From assembly GCA_049325535.1 (NCBI GenBank), contig JBMOKY010000001.1, positions 221,002-285,001 on the forward strand: a stretch of 64,000 bases of DNA, read 5' to 3'. The DNA comes from Patescibacteria group bacterium. GTDB taxonomy: Bacteria > Patescibacteriota > Patescibacteriia > UBA10025 > JAHIVO01. Positions 27,196 to 36,323 of this stretch are shown one piece after another. The position numbers were made by a program, and so were the translations under genes. Numbering within the stretch: position 1 is the first letter of the stretch; every line of letters starts with the position of its first letter. The notes below the pieces were generated by a model. The model had not been told where the DNA came from, searched no databases, and saw nothing but the letters and a program-made list of their open reading frames with translations.

Positions 27196-28017
27196 TTGCC
27201 ACGTATGGACTTTATTCCCTTAAGTGCATTATTCCTTGGGGCTGGTGCGCTGGCCATCGGCTACTACCGATGGGTACCGTCGGCAGAGGCATTACGCAGC
27301 CGTTTACCGAATCGCGCTACTCCGAGTAGTATCGTGCTGACCCTGGTCATGGGTGGGGCGGCATGGTATATCCTCTCTACTTTTTCTGGTTTTTCTGCGG
27401 TGAGCCGGATGCTGATGCTCATTTTCGCGCTGTTGTTTTTTGAATCGCTATTTTTGATTGGTTTGCGCTGGGTGCGCGTTAATTTTATCGCCCTGATACT
27501 GGCGCTTGCCGTGACTGCCGTGCTGTTCTGGGCGCAACTACAATATCCCACGTTCTTCGGGATTAACACGATTATTATCATGGCTACTATGGGCGCAGCG
27601 ACCCTACTGATCCGGCTCGGGTATCTCCGTACACCGATTTTATTCATCGTGGCCAGCCTGTGGACCGTCTATGATATCATGCTGGTTGAATTTGTATTGC
27701 CCGCGGTGACCCGGCCATCGACCAATCCCGTGCCGTCATTCCTGTATCCCGCCGTCACCGTCGGCCAGCTGAGTTTAGGGAGCGGTGATTTTATGTTTTT
27801 GACGTTGTTTGCCTTGATTGTTATGCGTGATTTTGGCGCACTGGCGGCAAGCATTTTAGTTGCCGCAGAAGTGGTCGGACTATTGATGACTGGACTGCTT
27901 TTGCCAGAGCAAGGATTTCTTGTGCCATTCCTGGTGGTTATGACGCCTATTTTCTTTCTGGTATACTTATTAGTGTATCTTGTCCGCCGCACATCATCGG
28001 AAACGAAGTCTGTATGA
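27196..28017 (+). CDS. Polytopic membrane protein with YD + GxGD motifs (presenilin/SPP/prepilin-peptidase-like intramembrane aspartyl protease candidate)
   Basis: About nine hydrophobic helices. WTVYDIML in helix 6, LSLGSGDFMF in helix 7, LVPFL (PAL-like) in the last helix. Confidence 0.5.
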   Translation: MPRMDFIPLSALFLGAGALAIGYYRWVPSAEALRSRLPNRATPSSIVLTLVMGGAAWYILSTFSGFSAVSRMLMLIFALLFFESLFLIGLRWVRVNFIALILALAVTAVLFWAQLQYPTFFGINTIIIMATMGAATLLIRLGYLRTPILFIVASLWTVYDIMLVEFVLPAVTRPSTNPVPSFLYPAVTVGQLSLGSGDFMFLTLFALIVMRDFGALAASILVAAEVVGLLMTGLLLPEQGFLVPFLVVMTPIFFLVYLLVYLVRRTSSETKSV

Positions 28018-29567
28018 ACCACATCAAGATTTCTTTTGCCACTCCGCCAATGCTTCGGCTGTATGGGTATTCGCCAGATTCGCCTGAAGCGATTTTTGAT
28101 CAGGTACAATCCGGGTGTCAACCTTCATCGTTGCGGGGGGATTTTATCGTGGTCGCCGAGGGTACCGACGCCCAATCAGGTAAGCCATTGACGGTTTTTA
28201 TCACTTCCGTCATCAGTGCCGTTCCGTATTACTATGTCATGACGGATACGACCTGCGTGCACGGTCCGATGATCATCGATTGCGTACGCAGAGCCGGTTT
28301 GACCTGGCAGTGGAACTGGTCGGCCATCGGGCAGATAGCGCTGTTTGATCATGTACTCGGTGACGCCTCGCTGCACCCCCAGGTACAGCGGGTGCCCGCC
28401 GCTAGTATTGTGATCATTCGAGGGACGCAGCGAGAATTCATGACGGAGCCGTTTTGGCAGAATCTGTACCATCAATCAGGGGGGCATACCAGTATCAGTG
28501 ACGCAGCGGATATGCTTGTGGCTCTGCTCGGCGAATTGCCCAGCTACAAGCCGCTGTCGCTCTCCTTGAGCGCGGGCTATGACAGCCGCGTACTCCTGGC
28601 GGGGCTGGCGTATCTCAAACGTACGGCGCAGACGGCCTGTATGGGTGCGCCTGACGCCACTGATCCGCGCATTGCCGAGCGGCTCGCGCGGGTGATCGGA
28701 TATGGGTATCATCGGGTAGCATTGAGCACAGATCAGTATGTATCCGAAGCAGAACGAATCCTGGCGATGACGAGCGGTGAAAAAGTCTTTTGCCACTGGC
28801 ATACAGGCATATATGCTCATACGGTCGGATTTGATCCACAGGGGGTGCATTTGGCAGGGTCAAATGGAGAATTCGCCCGTAGCTATTTTTTTGATAAAGG
28901 ATTTGTGGCACGCATGATGGATGTGTTGCCGATTGGGCATGGCGATTGGTGGCTGGCACGTGGTCACGCAGCTCCGCGGACAGTCGGCGAAGTAGTACGG
29001 CATATTGATCCGCAGTCGCCGTTTGCACAGGCGCTTGATATTCGCGCGCAACTCGCTTCAGTATATCCGCCGTATCTGAACTTTGGTGATGGTATGGATG
29101 TATTTTATGCTATGCAGCGGGTACGTAATTTTATTGGGTTGGGTATGGCACTGTATCGGGCTGATTTCCCGACGATGTCTCCCTTTCTGGATGTTCGCTT
29201 CATACAGGTGATGGCTCGGCTTCGCCGCCAAGATAAATTAGCCAATGCCATGCATCGGGGGATTATCGAAAAACTGCAACCTACCCTACTGACATTTCCG
29301 ACTGATGAAACGGACGTTCCTATGGGAGCGCGGCCATCAGGGATGTATTTCCGTCGACCGCGGCCAATCAAAGGGTATTCTCGGTCCACTGAAGCACAGC
29401 GATTGCCACAGGTGCGCCAGTGGGCACACCGGGGCTTTCGTTTGCTTGGTGGCAGCGAAAGTTCTGCTGAGGTCAGTGCCGTGGTAGAGCGCTGGAATCT
29501 CGGTATCACCGTCGGCGCATTTTCCGAATTGCTGCAGCGATCCGGCGTGAATGACGTCGCTGATTAA
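28014..29567 (+). CDS. Asparagine-synthetase-family (AsnB C-domain) ATP-dependent amidotransferase/ligase lacking N-terminal glutaminase nucleophile
   Basis: PP-loop-like LSLSAGYDSRVLLAG (SGGxDS variant). No Cys at position 2. ATGA overlap with the upstream membrane protein. Confidence 0.65.
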   Translation: MNHIKISFATPPMLRLYGYSPDSPEAIFDQVQSGCQPSSLRGDFIVVAEGTDAQSGKPLTVFITSVISAVPYYYVMTDTTCVHGPMIIDCVRRAGLTWQWNWSAIGQIALFDHVLGDASLHPQVQRVPAASIVIIRGTQREFMTEPFWQNLYHQSGGHTSISDAADMLVALLGELPSYKPLSLSLSAGYDSRVLLAGLAYLKRTAQTACMGAPDATDPRIAERLARVIGYGYHRVALSTDQYVSEAERILAMTSGEKVFCHWHTGIYAHTVGFDPQGVHLAGSNGEFARSYFFDKGFVARMMDVLPIGHGDWWLARGHAAPRTVGEVVRHIDPQSPFAQALDIRAQLASVYPPYLNFGDGMDVFYAMQRVRNFIGLGMALYRADFPTMSPFLDVRFIQVMARLRRQDKLANAMHRGIIEKLQPTLLTFPTDETDVPMGARPSGMYFRRPRPIKGYSRSTEAQRLPQVRQWAHRGFRLLGGSESSAEVSAVVERWNLGITVGAFSELLQRSGVNDVAD

Positions 29568-30111: not shown

Positions 30112-30160
30112 TTGCCGACTTGTCGGATCCTTGGTATATTGGGAAATATTGTAATTAGTA

Positions 30161-30967
30161 ATGAATATCAATGGTATGTCAGCGGAGCAACAACTAACAA
30201 AAAAACAACGGCGAGACCTTCGTCGACAGGAAAAACTCCAAAGCCGCGAACAGTTTGAACGGCAGAAATCAGTCCGCAGAGTCGTGATGTGGGTCGTTAT
30301 CGTGCTCGTTTTGGGGGGGATTGTGTATGCATTGACACAATTAGGTAGCAGCACAAATACCGATCAATTGTTAACCGACCGGATAACTCCTCAAGATCAT
30401 GCGTTAGGCGGCGCCGACGCCCCAGCCCAACTGATCGAATATAGCGATTTTCAGTGTCCGGCTTGCGCGGGATATGAAGATGTACTCAGTCAGATACGGG
30501 AGGAGTTTGGTGATCAATTGTTGTTTGCGTATCGACATTTTCCCTTGCGTTCCATTCATCCAAATGCCCAAATCTCCGCCGAAGCGGCTGAAGCGGCCGC
30601 ATTACAGGGCAAATTTTGGGACATGCACGCTCAGTTGTTTCAAACCCAACAGGAGTGGTCTGGCGTCAGCGATCCGACGGATATGTTTGTCGGATATGCT
30701 AACGACATTGGGCTCGATGTCGATCAATTCCGGACGGCGCTCGGTACTGATCAGGTCAGCGATCCGGTGAATGCTGATTATCAGAGTGGAGTCGCGGCCG
30801 GTGTGAATGCCACGCCGACTTTTTATCTGAACGGGGTGAAGCTGGACAATCCGCGGAGCGCTGATGAATTCCGCACCGAGATTCAGAAAGTGCTTGATGC
30901 TGCGGAAAATACGACAGACACCAATGCCGCTACGAACGGCAGTTCTGACACCGCAACCAATCAGTGA
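30161..30967 (+). CDS. Membrane-anchored DsbA-family thiol:disulfide oxidoreductase
   Basis: N-terminal TM anchor. Thioredoxin fold with a CPAC active site (FQCPACAGYEDVL). Confidence 0.75.
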   Translation: MNINGMSAEQQLTKKQRRDLRRQEKLQSREQFERQKSVRRVVMWVVIVLVLGGIVYALTQLGSSTNTDQLLTDRITPQDHALGGADAPAQLIEYSDFQCPACAGYEDVLSQIREEFGDQLLFAYRHFPLRSIHPNAQISAEAAEAAALQGKFWDMHAQLFQTQQEWSGVSDPTDMFVGYANDIGLDVDQFRTALGTDQVSDPVNADYQSGVAAGVNATPTFYLNGVKLDNPRSADEFRTEIQKVLDAAENTTDTNAATNGSSDTATNQ

Positions 30968-32019
30968 TGCCAGAATCGAGAAAACATTTCCGTTGGTTAC
31001 CGTGGGTGATACTGAGTACAGCGCTGGCGGGGTTTGTTGATGCGAGCTATCTGACGGTGGAGCATTATCGCGGAGTCGGGGTTGGGTGCTCGATCATCCA
31101 CGGCTGTGATACCGTACTGACCAGCCAGTATGCCGAAGTATTTGGTATCCCCACCGCGCTGCTGGGCGCTTTTTTTTATTTATCGATCACAGTTTTGAGT
31201 ATCATTTATTTGGACGGAAGAAATGGGATAGTATTGCGCGTATTGGCATGGTTGACCGTACCGGGGATGGCCGTGACGGCGGTGCTCGTATATTTACAGG
31301 GCGTCGTGATCGGAGCGTGGTGCCAGTACTGTTTGGTATCGGCGGTGACCTCGACACTGTTGTTTGTCATGGGAATGTATATTCTCAAAAATTCATCATC
31401 GATCGCCCAGAGCCGACGTCGGCTGGTTATGGCCACCGGAAATGCCGGCAAGGTCAGGGAAATGCGCCACATTTTTTCGGATATGGGCATCGATATCCTC
31501 AGTGCACGCGAGGCGGGGGTGGATAGCGAGGCAGTTGAAGACGGGACGACGCTGAAGCAAAACGCCCTGAAAAAGGCCCGGCACGTGGCCCGGCAGGTCA
31601 CCGATTGGGTGGTCGCGGATGATACCGGGCTGTTTGTCGATGCGCTCCAGGGTGCGCCGGGAGTGTATAGCGCCCGCCACGCCGGTGTAGGTGCCTCAGA
31701 TGATGCGATTCGCGATAAAGTGTTACGCGATATGGCGAATATAGCCTCCAAAGATCGCACTGCTCGTTTTATCAGCGCAGTCGCTGCCGTCGGTCCGGCG
31801 GGCCAGGAATCTGTTTTTATCGGAACACTTCGCGGGCGAATCAATACGACACCGGCCGGCGAAGCGCGTCCGCATTTGCCCTATGATCAGATTTTCATTC
31901 CTGAGGGATCAACCAAGACGTTGGCCGAAATGTCCGATGATGAAAAAAATTCCATCAGTCATCGGCGAATCGCATTTGATCAGTTGCGCGCGTTTCTCAA
32001 AAAAGAATTTACTGATTGA
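30967..32019 (+). CDS. VKOR (vitamin K epoxide reductase-like) domain fused in-frame to Ham1/RdgB non-canonical NTP pyrophosphatase domain
   Basis: N-terminal 4-TM region with loop Cys pair CSIIHGC and TM CQYC. Residues from about 155 read LVMATGNAGKVREMRHIF...FIPEGSTKTLAEMSDDEKNSISHR (Ham1). No stop between the domains. gTGATG overlap with the DsbA stop. Confidence 0.7.
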   Translation: MPESRKHFRWLPWVILSTALAGFVDASYLTVEHYRGVGVGCSIIHGCDTVLTSQYAEVFGIPTALLGAFFYLSITVLSIIYLDGRNGIVLRVLAWLTVPGMAVTAVLVYLQGVVIGAWCQYCLVSAVTSTLLFVMGMYILKNSSSIAQSRRRLVMATGNAGKVREMRHIFSDMGIDILSAREAGVDSEAVEDGTTLKQNALKKARHVARQVTDWVVADDTGLFVDALQGAPGVYSARHAGVGASDDAIRDKVLRDMANIASKDRTARFISAVAAVGPAGQESVFIGTLRGRINTTPAGEARPHLPYDQIFIPEGSTKTLAEMSDDEKNSISHRRIAFDQLRAFLKKEFTD

Positions 32020-32158
32020 AGGAATATTTTAAAAAGATACTTGAGTATTGTATTATTTTTTAAAATATGCTATACTCATGGTGTGGAAAAATGATTAATG
32101 TTGTTTATTTCAAAAGCTTTTTACTCTTTTACAAAAAATTTTTAACCATTGTGACGTG

Positions 32159-32179
32159 TTATTGCGGAAATAGCAATAA
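32159..32179 (+). promoter_or_regulatory. Perfect 7-bp inverted repeat TTATTGC-n7-GCAATAA upstream of polylysine protein gene
   Basis: Seen directly in the sequence, in an AT-rich island next to -10-like TATAGT/TATACT hexamers. Confidence 0.35.
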
Positions 32180-32236
32180 AATATAGTGTGCTATTACGCA
32201 TAAGCACTCAATGTACGAAAGGGGGTGAATATCACA

Positions 32237-32338
32237 ATGGCAAAACGCAAGAAAGTTGCGAAGAAAAAGACCACGAAGAAACGCAAAGCGGCTAAAAAAA
32301 CCACGAAACGCAAAGCAACCAAGAAACGAAAACGATAG
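32237..32338 (+). CDS. 33-aa polylysine/arginine protein (MAKRKKVAKKKTTKKRKAAKKTTKRKATKKRKR)
   Basis: Extended SD GAAAGGGGGTGAA sits 8 nt upstream. A terminator follows immediately. Composition resembles the tiny basic ribosomal protein bS22 or a nucleic-acid-binding peptide. Confidence 0.55.
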   Translation: MAKRKKVAKKKTTKKRKAAKKTTKRKATKKRKR

Positions 32339-32362
32339 TCGCGTCAGTTTCTTAACTTAAAG

Positions 32363-32386
32363 GCGACCTCATAGATGGTCGCTTTT
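32363..32386 (+). terminator. Rho-independent terminator
   Basis: gcgacc tcataga ggtcgc followed by ttttaag. Confidence 0.55.
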
Positions 32387-32444
32387 AAGTATTCATTGTG
32401 CCCTTACCATTTTTGAAAATATCGGCTAGAATAGTGGTGGAGGT

Positions 32445-32768
32445 ATGTTGAGAATTTTCGCTAACCTTAGAAAACTAAAACACCCAGAATATTGGGTTAT
32501 TGCTAGTGTCGTTCTGATTTTACCGCCGACATATTTTTGGTTTCTCGGGATGCTCCATACCGTCGGCATACCCATCACCATATCTACGCAATTATTGGAG
32601 CGCATGTCCATACCGCTGGCAAGTACTTTGGTGTATGTATGTCCGTTTGGCGCGCTGCTCGCGGGATACATCGCATGGCGCATGATGCGCAATGGATTTA
32701 CTATGCTGATCGTATTATTGAGTTCGCTGTTTGTTATTTTAAGTGTCGTGTCAGTGGCCTTGGGCTAA
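32445..32768 (+). CDS. Small membrane protein (3 predicted TM helices)
   Basis: Hydrophobic segments VIASVVLILPPTYFWFLGML, LVYVCPFGALLAGYIAW and MLIVLLSSLFVILSVVSVAL. Confidence 0.45.
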   Translation: MLRIFANLRKLKHPEYWVIASVVLILPPTYFWFLGMLHTVGIPITISTQLLERMSIPLASTLVYVCPFGALLAGYIAWRMMRNGFTMLIVLLSSLFVILSVVSVALG

Positions 32769-33153: not shown

Positions 33154-33647
33154 AGCAACTCCTCGTCTTCATGGGCAAACCCGGCGCGGGCAAGACGACA
33201 CTGATCCACGAATTATTTCCCGGACAGATGATTTTTGACGTTGCCGATTTTATCGCCGCGTACCGGACCGGCACAACATGGCCAGAACATAAAACCCTCC
33301 AGGGGTATGAGGACATGTATATGGCGCTTGAGCATATGCAGGATGTCGTCATCCTTGAGCTGGGCACGAATCACGCTGAGTACAATATCAATCAGCTCAG
33401 GCAAATCAGACAGCATGCTGATGTGCGAGTATTTGTCTGCACTGCTTCTGTTGACACACTCCGCCAGCGAGTACTGCGGCGGCCTGGATTTAGGGATATG
33501 GAGTCCATCGAACGCCGTTTCGCCTGGGATTTTCCGAATTCTCACTTACCATTATTTACCCAGGCGGGGATCGAGCCGTATTTTCTCGATATGGAACAAC
33601 CGATGACGGATAATGTGATCTTAGTCCGCCAAGCACTCCGATCATGA
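33150..33647 (+). CDS. P-loop NTPase / small kinase-like protein
   Basis: Walker A FMGKPGAGKTTLIHEL. ATGA overlaps with both neighbours. Confidence 0.7.
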   Translation: MKQLLVFMGKPGAGKTTLIHELFPGQMIFDVADFIAAYRTGTTWPEHKTLQGYEDMYMALEHMQDVVILELGTNHAEYNINQLRQIRQHADVRVFVCTASVDTLRQRVLRRPGFRDMESIERRFAWDFPNSHLPLFTQAGIEPYFLDMEQPMTDNVILVRQALRS

Positions 33648-34453
33648 ATTCGGCAGATTTTCGAAAAACAGTATACGCCCATTATCGCCGGCACCGGCGT
33701 GATTTGCCGTGGCGCCACACGACGAATCCGTATCACATCATGGTGTCGGAAATCATGCTCCAGCAGACGCAGGTGGATCGGGTCATCAAAAAATACAAAT
33801 CATTTATAAAAAAATTTCCCACCATACGTTCTCTGTCGCGGGCGCCATTATCCAGTGTATTGAAGGAGTGGCAAGGACTGGGGTACAACCGTCGCGCCAA
33901 ATATGTACATATGGCAGCGCGGCATATTTCCACGCAGGGCACGGGAAGATTTCCTCACACGACAGATGGATTGGTGTCGCTCCCCGGTATCGGAGTCCAT
34001 ACGGCCGGTGCTATTTGTGCCTATGCGTTTAATCAGCCGGTCACCTACATCGAAACCAATATCCGCACGGTGTTTATCCATCATTTTTTTCCCAGACGGA
34101 CGCAGGTGAGTGATGCGGAATTGTTGCCGGTGGTTCTCCGGACCCTGGATCACCGTAATCCCCGGCGGTGGTATTCGGCACTGATGGACTATGGTACCTG
34201 GCTGAAGAAAGAACATGGCAATGCTGCCCGCCGGAGCCGGCACTATACCAGACACTCGCCATTTCAGGGATCGCACCGACAGGTGCGGGGTGGCATTATT
34301 CGCCAGCTGACGACAGGTCGTGCCATGACCGCCGCTCAATTGCGACGAACGCTGGGGGTTCCTCTGTCGCGTATCAGTCGGGCACTTGAGGAATTACAGG
34401 CTGAGGGTTTGGTGACGAAGCGAGATGGAACAATTTATCTCAGTCGATACTAA
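33644..34453 (+). CDS. HhH-GPD DNA glycosylase, MutY-like, lacking FeS loop, with C-terminal winged-helix domain
   Basis: DLPWRHTTNPYHIMVSEIMLQQTQVDRVIKKYKSFIKKFPT and HhH LPGIGVHTAGAI are MutY-like. No Cys-x6-C-x2-C-x5-C motif. The C-terminus LRRTLGVPLSRISRALEELQAEGLV is wHTH-like. Confidence 0.7.
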   Translation: MNSADFRKTVYAHYRRHRRDLPWRHTTNPYHIMVSEIMLQQTQVDRVIKKYKSFIKKFPTIRSLSRAPLSSVLKEWQGLGYNRRAKYVHMAARHISTQGTGRFPHTTDGLVSLPGIGVHTAGAICAYAFNQPVTYIETNIRTVFIHHFFPRRTQVSDAELLPVVLRTLDHRNPRRWYSALMDYGTWLKKEHGNAARRSRHYTRHSPFQGSHRQVRGGIIRQLTTGRAMTAAQLRRTLGVPLSRISRALEELQAEGLVTKRDGTIYLSRY

Positions 34454-34570: not shown

Positions 34571-35263
34571 ATGCACGCATCGAAACTACCACAACATATA
34601 GGATTCGTCATGGATGGCAATCGCCGATGGGCAGCCGCACATGGCAAAAGCGCGACAGATGGCCACAAACAAGGCTATGAAGCTTTTCGACAGATTAGCG
34701 AACTGGTGCTGGATAAGGGAATTATGGTGGCGACGTTTTGGGCTTTTTCCACGGAAAACTGGAAACGGCCGAGACAAGAGATATTTGCTCTGATGAAGCT
34801 CCTCAAACACGCGCTCCGCACGGAGCTGAAGCGATTTATGGAGCGCGGTATCCGGTTTAATGCTTTGGGACGGATTGCCGCATTCCCGTTTGATGTCCGG
34901 CGGGAGATAAAACGTGCCATTGAAGAAACAAAAACAAATACCAAGGGCGTATTGAATATCGGATTGAATTATGGCGGACGGGAAGAGATCGTCGATGCTA
35001 TCAAAGGGATCGTGAAAAATGGTTTTTCACCAAATAAAATAACCGCTCAATTGGTCAATCGTTTTTTATACGCGCCCGATCTGCCCGAACCGGATCTCAT
35101 CATTCGCACTTCAGGTGAGCAGCGTTCATCTGGGTTTATGCTCTGGCAATCACCGTATGCGGAGTGGGTGTACTCACCAAAACTATGGCCAGAATATTCC
35201 GAGACTGACCTCGATGCAGCGCTCGACGAATATGCCCGGCGAAAAAGAAATTTTGGGGCATAG
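34571..35263 (+). CDS. uppS: Undecaprenyl diphosphate synthase (cis-prenyltransferase)
   Basis: HIGFVMDGNRRWA and FSTENWKRP motifs. Confidence 0.9.
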   Translation: MHASKLPQHIGFVMDGNRRWAAAHGKSATDGHKQGYEAFRQISELVLDKGIMVATFWAFSTENWKRPRQEIFALMKLLKHALRTELKRFMERGIRFNALGRIAAFPFDVRREIKRAIEETKTNTKGVLNIGLNYGGREEIVDAIKGIVKNGFSPNKITAQLVNRFLYAPDLPEPDLIIRTSGEQRSSGFMLWQSPYAEWVYSPKLWPEYSETDLDAALDEYARRKRNFGA

Positions 35264-35270
35264 GCTGCCT

Positions 35271-36323
35271 ATGCGTGCTGACCAACAGGTGCGCTCGATC
35301 ATCCGGCAGATTAACCGCCGGCTGCAGTTTGTGTTTGCGCGCTATGCCCGGTCAGCGGGCAGACAGCATCAGATTGCCCGACGGCTGAGCTCGGCGGTTG
35401 GCGAGTTTACCCTACGCCGGGGTGCCAAGCGTACACGGGGATTGCTCACCGTCATCGGGTATCTGGCAAATCCACGAAACCGCGTTGATAAAAATATCAT
35501 CACCATCGCTGCGGCCTATGAGGTACTACAGGCGTATTTGCTGATTCATGATGATATCATCGATGATGACGATGTCCGACGGGGCAGACCGACACTACAC
35601 CGGTTGTTTGAACGTGCCGTGCCCGCGGGAGTCAGCCGGACGGTCCGGGAAAAAATCGGACGCGACATAGCTATCATCGCCGGGGACGTGGCTGCCGATA
35701 TGGTACAGCGTATCATTTTAGAGACGTCATTTCCCGATTCCCAGAAGCTGCGTGCGTTAGCGCTGATTGATCAGACGCTGCATACGACGTATGCCGGCCA
35801 AGTGCTGGATATTCTGTCATTGCCCCAGCATCCGCCGCGCCTGAACGATCAGATTCTTCGCTATCAATTAAAAACTGCCCGCTATTCCATCGCATCACCG
35901 TTCATGCTCGGCGCTGAACTGGGCTTAGCATCATTCCAGCGAAATGCCTTTAATCGGTTTGCCGAAGCTGCCGGTGTCGGATTTCAGTTGGCCGATGATA
36001 TTGCCAATGTATTTGGAGTCCAGCTGGCACGGCGTTCATCCGATATCCGCAGTGGCAAGGTGACACTCTTGATGACGCTGGCACTTCAGTCGAACCAGCA
36101 TCGGCCGGCGCTTCTGCGCTTGCTAGCACGTCCGGCTCGTACGGCAGATGACGTGCGTCATCTCGTGGTGCTGCTGGAGGACAGCGGCGGTTTGGCACGG
36201 GCGAGAGCAATGGTCAGTCGGGAATATGAGCGTGCTGAACGGCTGATTTCCCGACTCGATTTATCCGAGAAAAGCGAAACATTGCTCCGCTGGCTGGTGG
36301 CACGGTTTAAGCAAGCAAACTAA
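35271..36323 (+). CDS. trans-Polyprenyl diphosphate synthase (FPP/GGPP synthase family)
   Basis: FARM LIHDDIIDDDDVRRG and SARM GFQLADDIANVFG. The track ORF begins earlier at 35115 inside uppS. Confidence 0.85.
   Translation: MRADQQVRSIIRQINRRLQFVFARYARSAGRQHQIARRLSSAVGEFTLRRGAKRTRGLLTVIGYLANPRNRVDKNIITIAAAYEVLQAYLLIHDDIIDDDDVRRGRPTLHRLFERAVPAGVSRTVREKIGRDIAIIAGDVAADMVQRIILETSFPDSQKLRALALIDQTLHTTYAGQVLDILSLPQHPPRLNDQILRYQLKTARYSIASPFMLGAELGLASFQRNAFNRFAEAAGVGFQLADDIANVFGVQLARRSSDIRSGKVTLLMTLALQSNQHRPALLRLLARPARTADDVRHLVVLLEDSGGLARARAMVSREYERAERLISRLDLSEKSETLLRWLVARFKQAN

Follow-up and report, generated by a model that had tools for sequence, protein, structure and literature searches.

Here, we describe a gene in a 64,000-nucleotide stretch of the Patescibacteria group bacterium assembly GCA_049325535.1 (contig JBMOKY010000001.1, positions 221,002 to 285,001 of the forward strand; the whole stretch is called the window below), whose single open reading frame (ORF) joins a four-helix VKOR domain to a complete RdgB/Ham1 dITP/XTP pyrophosphatase domain. 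VKOR is a known substitute for DsbB, re-oxidising the disulfide oxidase DsbA, and a dsbA-like gene overlaps the start of the fusion gene. Our analysis suggests that the frame probably yields a single polypeptide that is bifunctional and membrane-tethered, without mechanistic coupling between its two halves, and that the fusion is specific to one lineage. The in-frame VKOR–Ham1 combination is new; the dsbA–VKOR pair and RdgB-type Ham1 are each known, and the proteins are public but named for one of their domains.

VKOR and Ham1 domains share one open frame

The ORF downstream of dsbA (30964/30967–32019) is open throughout, containing neither a stop codon nor a frameshift. An uninterrupted frame following dsbA with a gTGATG overlap had been reported in a preliminary description of the window, made from the sequence by eye of a model, and we find the same, with the refinement that a start at the ATG at 30967 (350 residues) is more likely than one at the GTG at 30964 (351 residues), as judged from the NCBI gene call and all homologues. 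Translated from this ATG, the protein is identical to NCBI MFZ6035741.1 (P0270 in our set), encoded on a 1.15 Mb contig; that record carries the name RdgB/HAM1 only and leaves the VKOR half unnamed. The gene contains the following features, given with the evidence for each.

30964..32019, + strand: VKOR–Ham1 fusion gene, 351 amino acids (aa) from GTG 30964 or 350 aa from ATG 30967 (ORF list; Pfam; NCBIfam)
31003..31371, + strand: VKOR domain, Pfam aa 14–136 (Pfam VKOR, 90.1 bits, E = 2e-25, cut-off 27.5; AlphaFold2 (AF2) model)
31087..31107, + strand: loop cysteine pair C42/C48 (CSIIHGC, aa 42–48), predicted to be extracytoplasmic (aligned to Synechococcus VKOR C50/C56)
31321..31332, + strand: CXXC redox centre C120-Q-Y-C123, at the predicted outer end of transmembrane helix 4 (TM4) (aligned to Synechococcus C130/C133)
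31387..31419, + strand: basic, non-conserved linker KNSSSIAQSRR, aa 142–152, predicted to be cytoplasmic, with a low predicted local distance difference test (pLDDT) score (alignment; AF2; codon analysis)
31420..32016, + strand: complete RdgB/Ham1 dITP/XTP pyrophosphatase domain, aa 153–351 (Pfam; TIGR00042; 1k7k)
31429..31431, + strand: M156 ATG, candidate internal start, located in strand β1 and in an internal-codon context (AF2; alignments; start statistics)
31957..31965, + strand: Ham1 C-terminal SHR motif, aa 332–334, invariant (alignment)

The VKOR domain profile matches the Synechococcus VKOR structures 4nv6/3kp9 (E = 1.5e-10), and S54 aligns with the conserved loop serine of the Synechococcus protein. 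The four cysteines and this loop serine are invariant across the fusions and their standalone relatives. The Ham1 half matches Pfam Ham1p_like at aa 154–343 over 185 of 186 model positions (191.6 bits, cut-off 22.5, E = 1.6e-56) and passes the NCBIfam RdgB/HAM1 equivalog model TIGR00042 (171.6 against a cut-off of 145.35). It shares 40% identity with E. coli RdgB (1k7k) at a TM-score of 0.86, and a Foldseek search with this half gave TM-scores of 0.86–0.92 to 1k7k and 4bnq, all normalised to the target. Motif residues T158/N160/K163, E192, K203/K204, D219/D220 and S332-H333-R334 are invariant.

Judged by their E-values, both domain matches lie far outside chance. An above-threshold score, a four-TM core and the presence of all four cysteines together with the loop serine place the first half in the VKOR family (PF07884) on sequence grounds, and the equivalog-level score, the fold and the T-x-N-x-x-K, DD and SHR motifs likewise place the second half among RdgB/Ham1 proteins (PF01725/TIGR00042); the enzymatic activities of both halves are predicted from this homology. 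These assignments bear out what had been read directly from the translation, namely a four-TM VKOR with CSIIHGC and CQYC, to which Pfam, the AF2 model and the cysteine alignment all agree, and a complete Ham1 domain bearing ATGNAGKVREM and SHR, as Pfam and TIGR00042 also indicate.

Predicted topology places the two domains on opposite faces of the membrane

In the AF2 model (mean pLDDT 77), four TM helices are predicted at aa 5–36, 55–85, 88–116 and 121–150, with a low-confidence stretch at aa 145–150 leading into Ham1 strand β1 at aa 153–156. The model thereby shows a low-confidence linker between TM4 and β1, which answers the earlier question of whether a linker separates the domains. Foldseek searches with the VKOR part recovered 4nv5, 3kp9 and 6wv* at a probability of 1.00. 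Lysine and arginine residues number three at the N-terminus, two in loop 2 and four after TM4, and none in loops 1 and 3. Together, the modelled helices and this pattern of basic residues point to an N-in/C-in topology, in which the loop cysteine pair and the CXXC of VKOR are predicted to face outward, as known from solved VKOR structures, and Ham1 to be cytoplasmic, about 10 residues from the membrane. A dITP/XTP pyrophosphatase has to act in the cytoplasm.

The fusion gene overlaps an upstream dsbA-like gene

The gene directly upstream of the fusion, and the sequence just 5′ of it, contain the following features.

30112..30140, + strand: promoter-like site TTGCCG-17-TATATT with TG, just 5′ of dsbA, a possible operon promoter (consensus scan, weak)
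30161..30967, + strand: dsbA-like gene, encoding a putative membrane-anchored thioredoxin-fold disulfide oxidase of 268 aa (ORF list; Pfam)
30281..30343, + strand: N-terminal signal-anchor TM helix, aa 41–61, after a K/R-rich cytoplasmic tail (sequence inspection)
30455..30466, + strand: DsbA active site CPAC, aa 99–102 (motif position in translation)

The 268-residue product matches Pfam Thioredoxin_4 (E = 5e-25, 89 bits, cut-off 23.2) and DSBA (E = 5e-13, 49.6 bits, cut-off 25.6), and its cis-Pro (T-Pro) loop, ATPTF, lies at aa 217–221. Thioredoxin family matches (PF13462/PF01323), a CPxC motif, a cis-Pro loop and a TM anchor are all present, marking the product of 30161–30967 as a probable DsbA-like oxidase, consistent with the membrane-anchored CPAC DsbA of the preliminary description. 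The promoter-like site in front of it should be read with care, as the consensus scan found six such sites against 4.7 expected in shuffled sequences, which is weak evidence for 30112..30140.

At the junction of the two genes, which reads CAGTGATGCC and includes the GTG at 30964, the dsbA stop codon TGA (30965–30967) and the ATG (30967–30969) share one base in TGATG, an overlap through which dsbA and the downstream fusion gene would form a translationally coupled pair. VKOR is directly preceded by a dsbA-like gene in each of the seven fusion lineages, and the same holds for 56 of the 72 other VKOR loci examined in GTDB species genomes.

From these data, we propose that the fusion protein would carry two independent catalytic modules in one chain, on opposite faces of the cytoplasmic membrane. 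On the outside, C42/C48 in the outward loop would accept electrons from reduced DsbA, and the electrons would then move to C120/C123 at the outer end of TM4 and on to a membrane acceptor. In characterised VKORs, this membrane acceptor is a quinone; in the part of the window that was annotated, 28–36 kb, we noticed no gene for quinone biosynthesis. TM4 would bring the chain back to the cytoplasm, where the basic linker would be followed by Ham1 at the inner membrane face, and the tethered Ham1 domain would hydrolyse dITP, XTP and ITP to the monophosphate and pyrophosphate.

The fusion is rare, but conserved in independent assemblies

A search of 5.8 billion protein clusters for the same fusion, a check that had been put forward in the preliminary description, identified seven clusters with the VKOR+Ham1 architecture. 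At the 90% identity used for clustering, one of these is the window's own (P0001), and the other six (P0002–P0007) are 56–61% identical to the window protein. They derive from at least six independent assemblies, including GCA_016214565.1 (Candidatus Kerfeldbacteria, with a contig of 1.1 Mb), GCA_034678405.1, GCA_975963565.1 and several Logan SRA assemblies. In the longer contigs, synteny is kept, with GNAT, dsbA and the fusion gene followed by DUF1653, AAA_33-like, HhH-GPD, undecaprenyl pyrophosphate (UPP) synthase and polyprenyl synthase genes. Strain-level variants of the window gene, carrying one or two substitutions on other contigs, also retain the open frame.

Outside this group, the two domains appear apart. 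When 1.84 billion representatives of clusters at 50% identity were scanned exhaustively with HMMER, one cluster matched both halves, the window's own, and the other matches listed were Ham1-only (from about aa 150) or VKOR-only. No Ham1 gene lies within 4 kb of VKOR in any of the 72 other VKOR loci in GTDB species genomes, and none of 80 JGI metagenome loci contains VKOR and Ham1 together (64 are Ham1-only and 16 VKOR-only). The idea that close relatives would always encode the two domains as separate genes, which would have spoken against a genuine fusion, is thus contradicted, as adjacent unfused VKOR and Ham1 genes were not found in these 72 GTDB and 80 JGI loci. Three JGI loci with matches that seemed to span the domain junction (L114, L137 and L155) each proved to be single-domain. 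Ham1 neighbourhoods in Uhrbacteria and Falkowbacteria show no tie to VKOR or to the synteny block of the window. The contigs of the nearest standalone VKOR (P0198, 53% identity) end before the downstream genes and are uninformative about neighbours.

These data bear on whether the fusion might be an artefact, with two ordinary genes appearing merged through a sequencing or assembly error that erased the stop codon separating them or changed the frame. Nothing other than the rarity of the architecture speaks for such an error, which we consider to have a negligible chance of being the explanation. The same open frame is present in at least six independent assemblies at 56–61% identity as well as in the strain-level variants, and an artefact is excluded on that basis; moreover, the linker varies in sequence and length across lineages, yet the domains are always in frame. 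The suspected frameshift or missing stop between the domains was therefore not borne out by any of the at least six independent assemblies.

Two of the public records are shortened at their N-termini. The gene calls for P0007 (312 aa, L002:6001-6939) and P0003 (339 aa, L001:6001-7020) start at an internal Met, and by tblastn the VKOR match reaches upstream to 5926 in L002 and 5962 in L001, showing that these records lack the N-termini with TM1.

Both domains, but not the linker, are under strong purifying selection

Among the fusion genes, the most similar pairs show, in both domains, proportions of nonsynonymous differences (pN) of 0.10–0.16 against proportions of synonymous differences (pS) of 0.53–0.74, corresponding to a dN/dS of about 0.05–0.11. 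With synonymous sites close to saturation, information can be drawn from no more than the three or four closest pairs, and even their values are rough. This substitution pattern indicates that the VKOR and Ham1 domains are both under strong purifying selection. In the linker (aa 141–152), pN is about equal to pS in most pairs, with some constraint in the closest pair, L001–L087 (dN/dS 0.32). The linker has 11–14 residues and shows a 3-codon (3-aa) indel among the homologues, but never a stop codon or a frameshift.

The fusion probably arose once by loss of a gene boundary

In a neighbour-joining (NJ) tree of 70 Ham1 domains, the seven VKOR-fused domains form one clade among standalone Patescibacteria Ham1 proteins, which implies a single fusion event. 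The fusion would have arisen once, in the ancestor of a small Kerfeldbacteria-like clade of the ultra-small Patescibacteria. The boundaries of the two parts are informative about how this may have happened. Standalone VKOR relatives P0198 (154 aa) and P0229 (153 aa) terminate a few residues past TM4, and the closest standalone Ham1 proteins begin with M[KRQ]L[IV]FATHN. R152 of the window protein aligns with the initiator Met of standalone Ham1, a position that varies in the fusions (R/T/K/P/L/V/S). With the VKOR part stopping at the same point as its standalone counterparts, and the Ham1 part starting just after the ancestral Met, two complete genes appear to have been joined end to end. The most probable route of origin, suggested by the alignments, is that these genes abutted or overlapped and then lost the stop/start boundary separating them. 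Gene overlaps are common in the window.

A single chain without functional coupling is favoured over alternative explanations

We infer that the fusion is translated as one chain, and also that its halves are not functionally coupled. No finding here calls for coupling: the substrates are unrelated and lie on opposite sides of the membrane, no locus examined outside the clade has VKOR and Ham1 as neighbours, and Ham1 is promiscuous in its fusions. Ham1 fusion partners found include DUF386, GrpB, alpha/beta hydrolase, RibD, RNase PH, LigA, SpoU and HAD, as well as Metallophos, NUDIX, CRS1_YhbY, CPCC, Rce1-like and DUF2127. Since Ham1 fuses to so many unrelated partners, an incidental fusion is at least as likely as purposeful tethering, and the VKOR fusion may have been kept since because Ham1 expression depends on it, rather than through coupling of the two chemistries. 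Several points weigh against this reading of the gene. RdgB/ITPA enzymes are homodimers, and the tether here measures only about 10 residues. M156 is invariant in all seven fusions, against Met in 4 of 244 standalone Ham1 proteins (which mostly have L, F or I), and this could mean a conserved internal start; as the genome initiates without a Shine-Dalgarno (SD) sequence, a missing SD is no obstacle to such a start, and the sequence alone leaves room for it. Finally, at least three further routes, each phylogenetically separate, anchor related Ham1 domains in the membrane, hinting that the membrane location may have adaptive value.

If M156 served as a start, there would be two products, with soluble Ham1 made also or only from this ATG, or from a preceding GTG in some lineages, and the attachment of Ham1 to VKOR would be incidental. 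Lineages L087 and L001 have GGAGG/GGAG-like strings upstream of M156, and in the window a promoter-like TTGTCA-17-AAAAAT is located at 31364–31392, 37 nt upstream of it. However, SD-like strings are seen in only two of the seven lineages, where they derive from Gly/Glu codons of the linker, and the promoter-like sequence was rejected as an internal promoter, being absent in six of six homologues and belonging to a type of site that is not enriched in the region. In the AF2 model, M156 is the last residue of strand β1, and it aligns with L6 of E. coli RdgB. A start at this codon would drop 4–5 residues, whereas all 244 N-terminal Ham1 homologues keep at least four residues before ATxN, with a mode of five. 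The nucleotide context is equally unlike that of a start, since the 20 nt before M156, which include the palindrome GCCGACGTCGGC, have an AT content of 35%, compared with a median of 65% for true starts, and the folding energy from −30 to +15 is −12.1 kcal/mol against a median of −4.6, with 1 of 37 true starts equally structured. The invariance of M156 is explained equally well by shared ancestry. On this evidence, internal initiation at M156 is disfavoured, and we regard it as unlikely that separate Ham1 production accounts for the gene. The two-gene alternative of the preliminary description, with Ham1 starting at M156, thus loses ground to its β1 position, the 244 homologues and the GC-rich, structured context, while the accompanying argument that this ATG has no obvious SD turned out to be uninformative. 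The median energy of the duplex with the anti-SD is −0.4 kcal/mol at 37 true starts against −3.3 kcal/mol at 217 internal in-frame ATGs; true starts here have even weaker anti-SD pairing than internal ATGs, and we discarded the SD as a discriminator of internal starts. More generally, the 37 gene starts in the window (2701–56235) show that the genome hardly uses SD sequences, its starts being marked by AT-rich, unstructured upstream regions.

With a single chain favoured, its membrane location could itself be useful, for example if an ITPase at the inner membrane face sanitised salvaged or imported purine nucleotides in a host-dependent cell of the candidate phyla radiation (CPR). The other anchored forms of Ham1 are relevant here. 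P0017 (L170:1799-2902) and P0121 combine Ham1 with a C-terminal DUF2127; P0123, at 54% identity the most similar representative to the window Ham1 among the matches listed, has a 2-TM tail at its C-terminus; and in P0202, an Rce1-like (CAAX-protease) domain precedes Ham1 at the N-terminus. In the NJ tree, these forms are scattered among standalone Ham1 proteins, indicating that they are independent of the VKOR fusion, which for its part has been retained across saturating synonymous divergence. A further candidate, P0251 (457 aa, Ham1 with a TonB-receptor Plug), has a signal-peptide-like segment between its parts; it probably reflects read-through in the gene call, and we did not include it among the membrane fusions. 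Nevertheless, the majority of Ham1 fusions have soluble, unrelated partners, close Ham1 homologues are mostly standalone and soluble, and the linker is unconstrained. Linkage to a transporter gene is not shared by all lineages, as only in the L002–L004 lineage is the fusion followed by an MFS gene, and the nucleotide-import rationale is conjecture. Adaptive tethering is therefore a doubtful explanation. Similarly doubtful is a recurrent form of it in host-dependent Patescibacteria, in which fusion to VKOR, fusion to DUF2127 and the 2-TM tail would have convergently brought an ITPase to the inner membrane face, where salvaged or imported purine nucleotides would enter. It is highly improbable that one module is degenerate, with VKOR a mere membrane anchor or Ham1 a catalytically dead binding domain. 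NCBIfam VKOR equivalog models do score under their cut-offs, but these are narrow PRK14889 equivalogs, and the general Pfam VKOR cut-off is exceeded threefold; the VKOR cysteines and loop serine are invariant and the coupled dsbA is always present, while the Ham1 motifs are invariant, TIGR00042 is passed, and both domains have the low dN/dS given above. The bifunctional membrane protein envisaged at the outset thus gains support from conservation, purifying selection and topology, whereas a purpose behind the membrane tethering of nucleotide-pool sanitation is no more likely than an incidental fusion, given the many unrelated partners of Ham1.

Genes surrounding the fusion

Several further observations concern the neighbourhood of the dsbA–fusion pair. 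An HhH-GPD (EndoIII/MutY-like) glycosylase gene at 33644–34453 (+), whose product has a C-terminal winged helix (MarR_2/HTH_20 matches at aa 214–265), is located 1.6 kb 3′ of the fusion gene and keeps its syntenic position in all longer homologous loci, placing a DNA-repair gene near a nucleotide-sanitising domain. UPP synthase (Prenyltransf) and polyprenyl synthase genes follow at 34571–36323 (+), and are syntenic with the dsbA–VKOR block in relatives. Directly after the fusion gene, an AT-rich gap of 425 nt (32020–32444) contains no long ORF; it includes a hairpin with a 14-bp stem (32355–32390) and promoter-like sites at 32028–32056 and 32404–32432, and is followed by an ORF for a 107-aa membrane protein (32445–32768). 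An Rfam scan of the window detected two tRNAs only, with no match in this gap. Upstream, an ORF of 517 aa at 28014–29567 (+) shows only a sub-threshold Asn_synthase match (20 bits, cut-off 21). The genes at the equivalent position are not comparable in size: in L001 they are an unannotated one of 263 aa and DUF3179, and in L002 an unannotated one of 269 aa. The 28014–29567 ORF is a lineage-specific insertion upstream of the GNAT–dsbA block.

Relation to known systems and significance

The closest described parallel to the gene pair is M. tuberculosis Rv2969c/Rv2968c, in which a DsbA-like protein is encoded next to a VKOR homologue taking the place of DsbB (PMC3792642); the window likewise has a membrane-anchored Thioredoxin_4/DsbA-like oxidase beside VKOR. 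In actinobacterial VKORs, a fifth TM helix is present but additional domains are absent (PMC4555120), unlike in the window protein, in which four TM helices are followed by a predicted cytoplasmic Ham1. In known multidomain VKORs, the fifth TM helix carries a thioredoxin-like partner to the outside, and a 2015 VKOR phylogeny described Trx-like, fifth-TM and N-terminal additions only (PMC4555120). With the Synechococcus VKOR–Trx protein (3KP9, 4NV2/5/6), the window protein shares the 4-helix core, the loop cysteine pair, the CXXC and a multidomain design. However, the extra domain of the Synechococcus fusion is a redox partner, periplasmic and mechanistically coupled, whereas in the window DsbA is separate and the fused domain is predicted to be cytoplasmic, with unrelated chemistry. 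The VKOR–Trx architecture, with a fifth TM helix and an extracytoplasmic Trx in the chain, is not seen in the window protein, where Ham1 comes after TM4.

The catalytic motifs of E. coli RdgB and human ITPA (1K7K, 2Q16, 2CAR) are conserved in the window Ham1; these enzymes are soluble, about 200 aa long and not fused to another domain, whereas the window Ham1 forms the C-terminal half of a predicted integral membrane protein. As in RNase PH–Ham1, Ham1–DUF2127 and Rce1-like–Ham1 proteins, Ham1 is joined in frame to an unrelated partner, some of these partners being membrane proteins; unlike in those fusions, the partner here is VKOR, and the fusion is phylogenetically independent of them. No VKOR–Ham1 fusion is described in the literature searched, in which no paper mentions VKOR as well as Ham1, and VKOR and Patescibacteria were mentioned together only in an unrelated paper. 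This agrees with the statement in the preliminary description that such a fusion was not known, although the protein itself is deposited in NCBI as RdgB/HAM1.

By itself, the fusion opens no new mechanism, given that the substrates are unrelated, the two activities are predicted on opposite membrane sides and Ham1 is readily fused. If recurrent tethering did prove to be adaptive, VKOR–Ham1 would mark an unrecognised spatial organisation of house-cleaning. Naming these proteins RdgB/HAM1 only causes the DsbA re-oxidant to be overlooked in the annotation of these genomes. The fusion can also serve as a natural reporter of the side of the membrane on which the C-terminus of a 4-TM VKOR lies. If made as predicted, the protein would be the first VKOR with a cytoplasmic enzymatic domain as well as a naturally membrane-tethered ITPase, widening the catalogues of both VKOR and Ham1 architectures.

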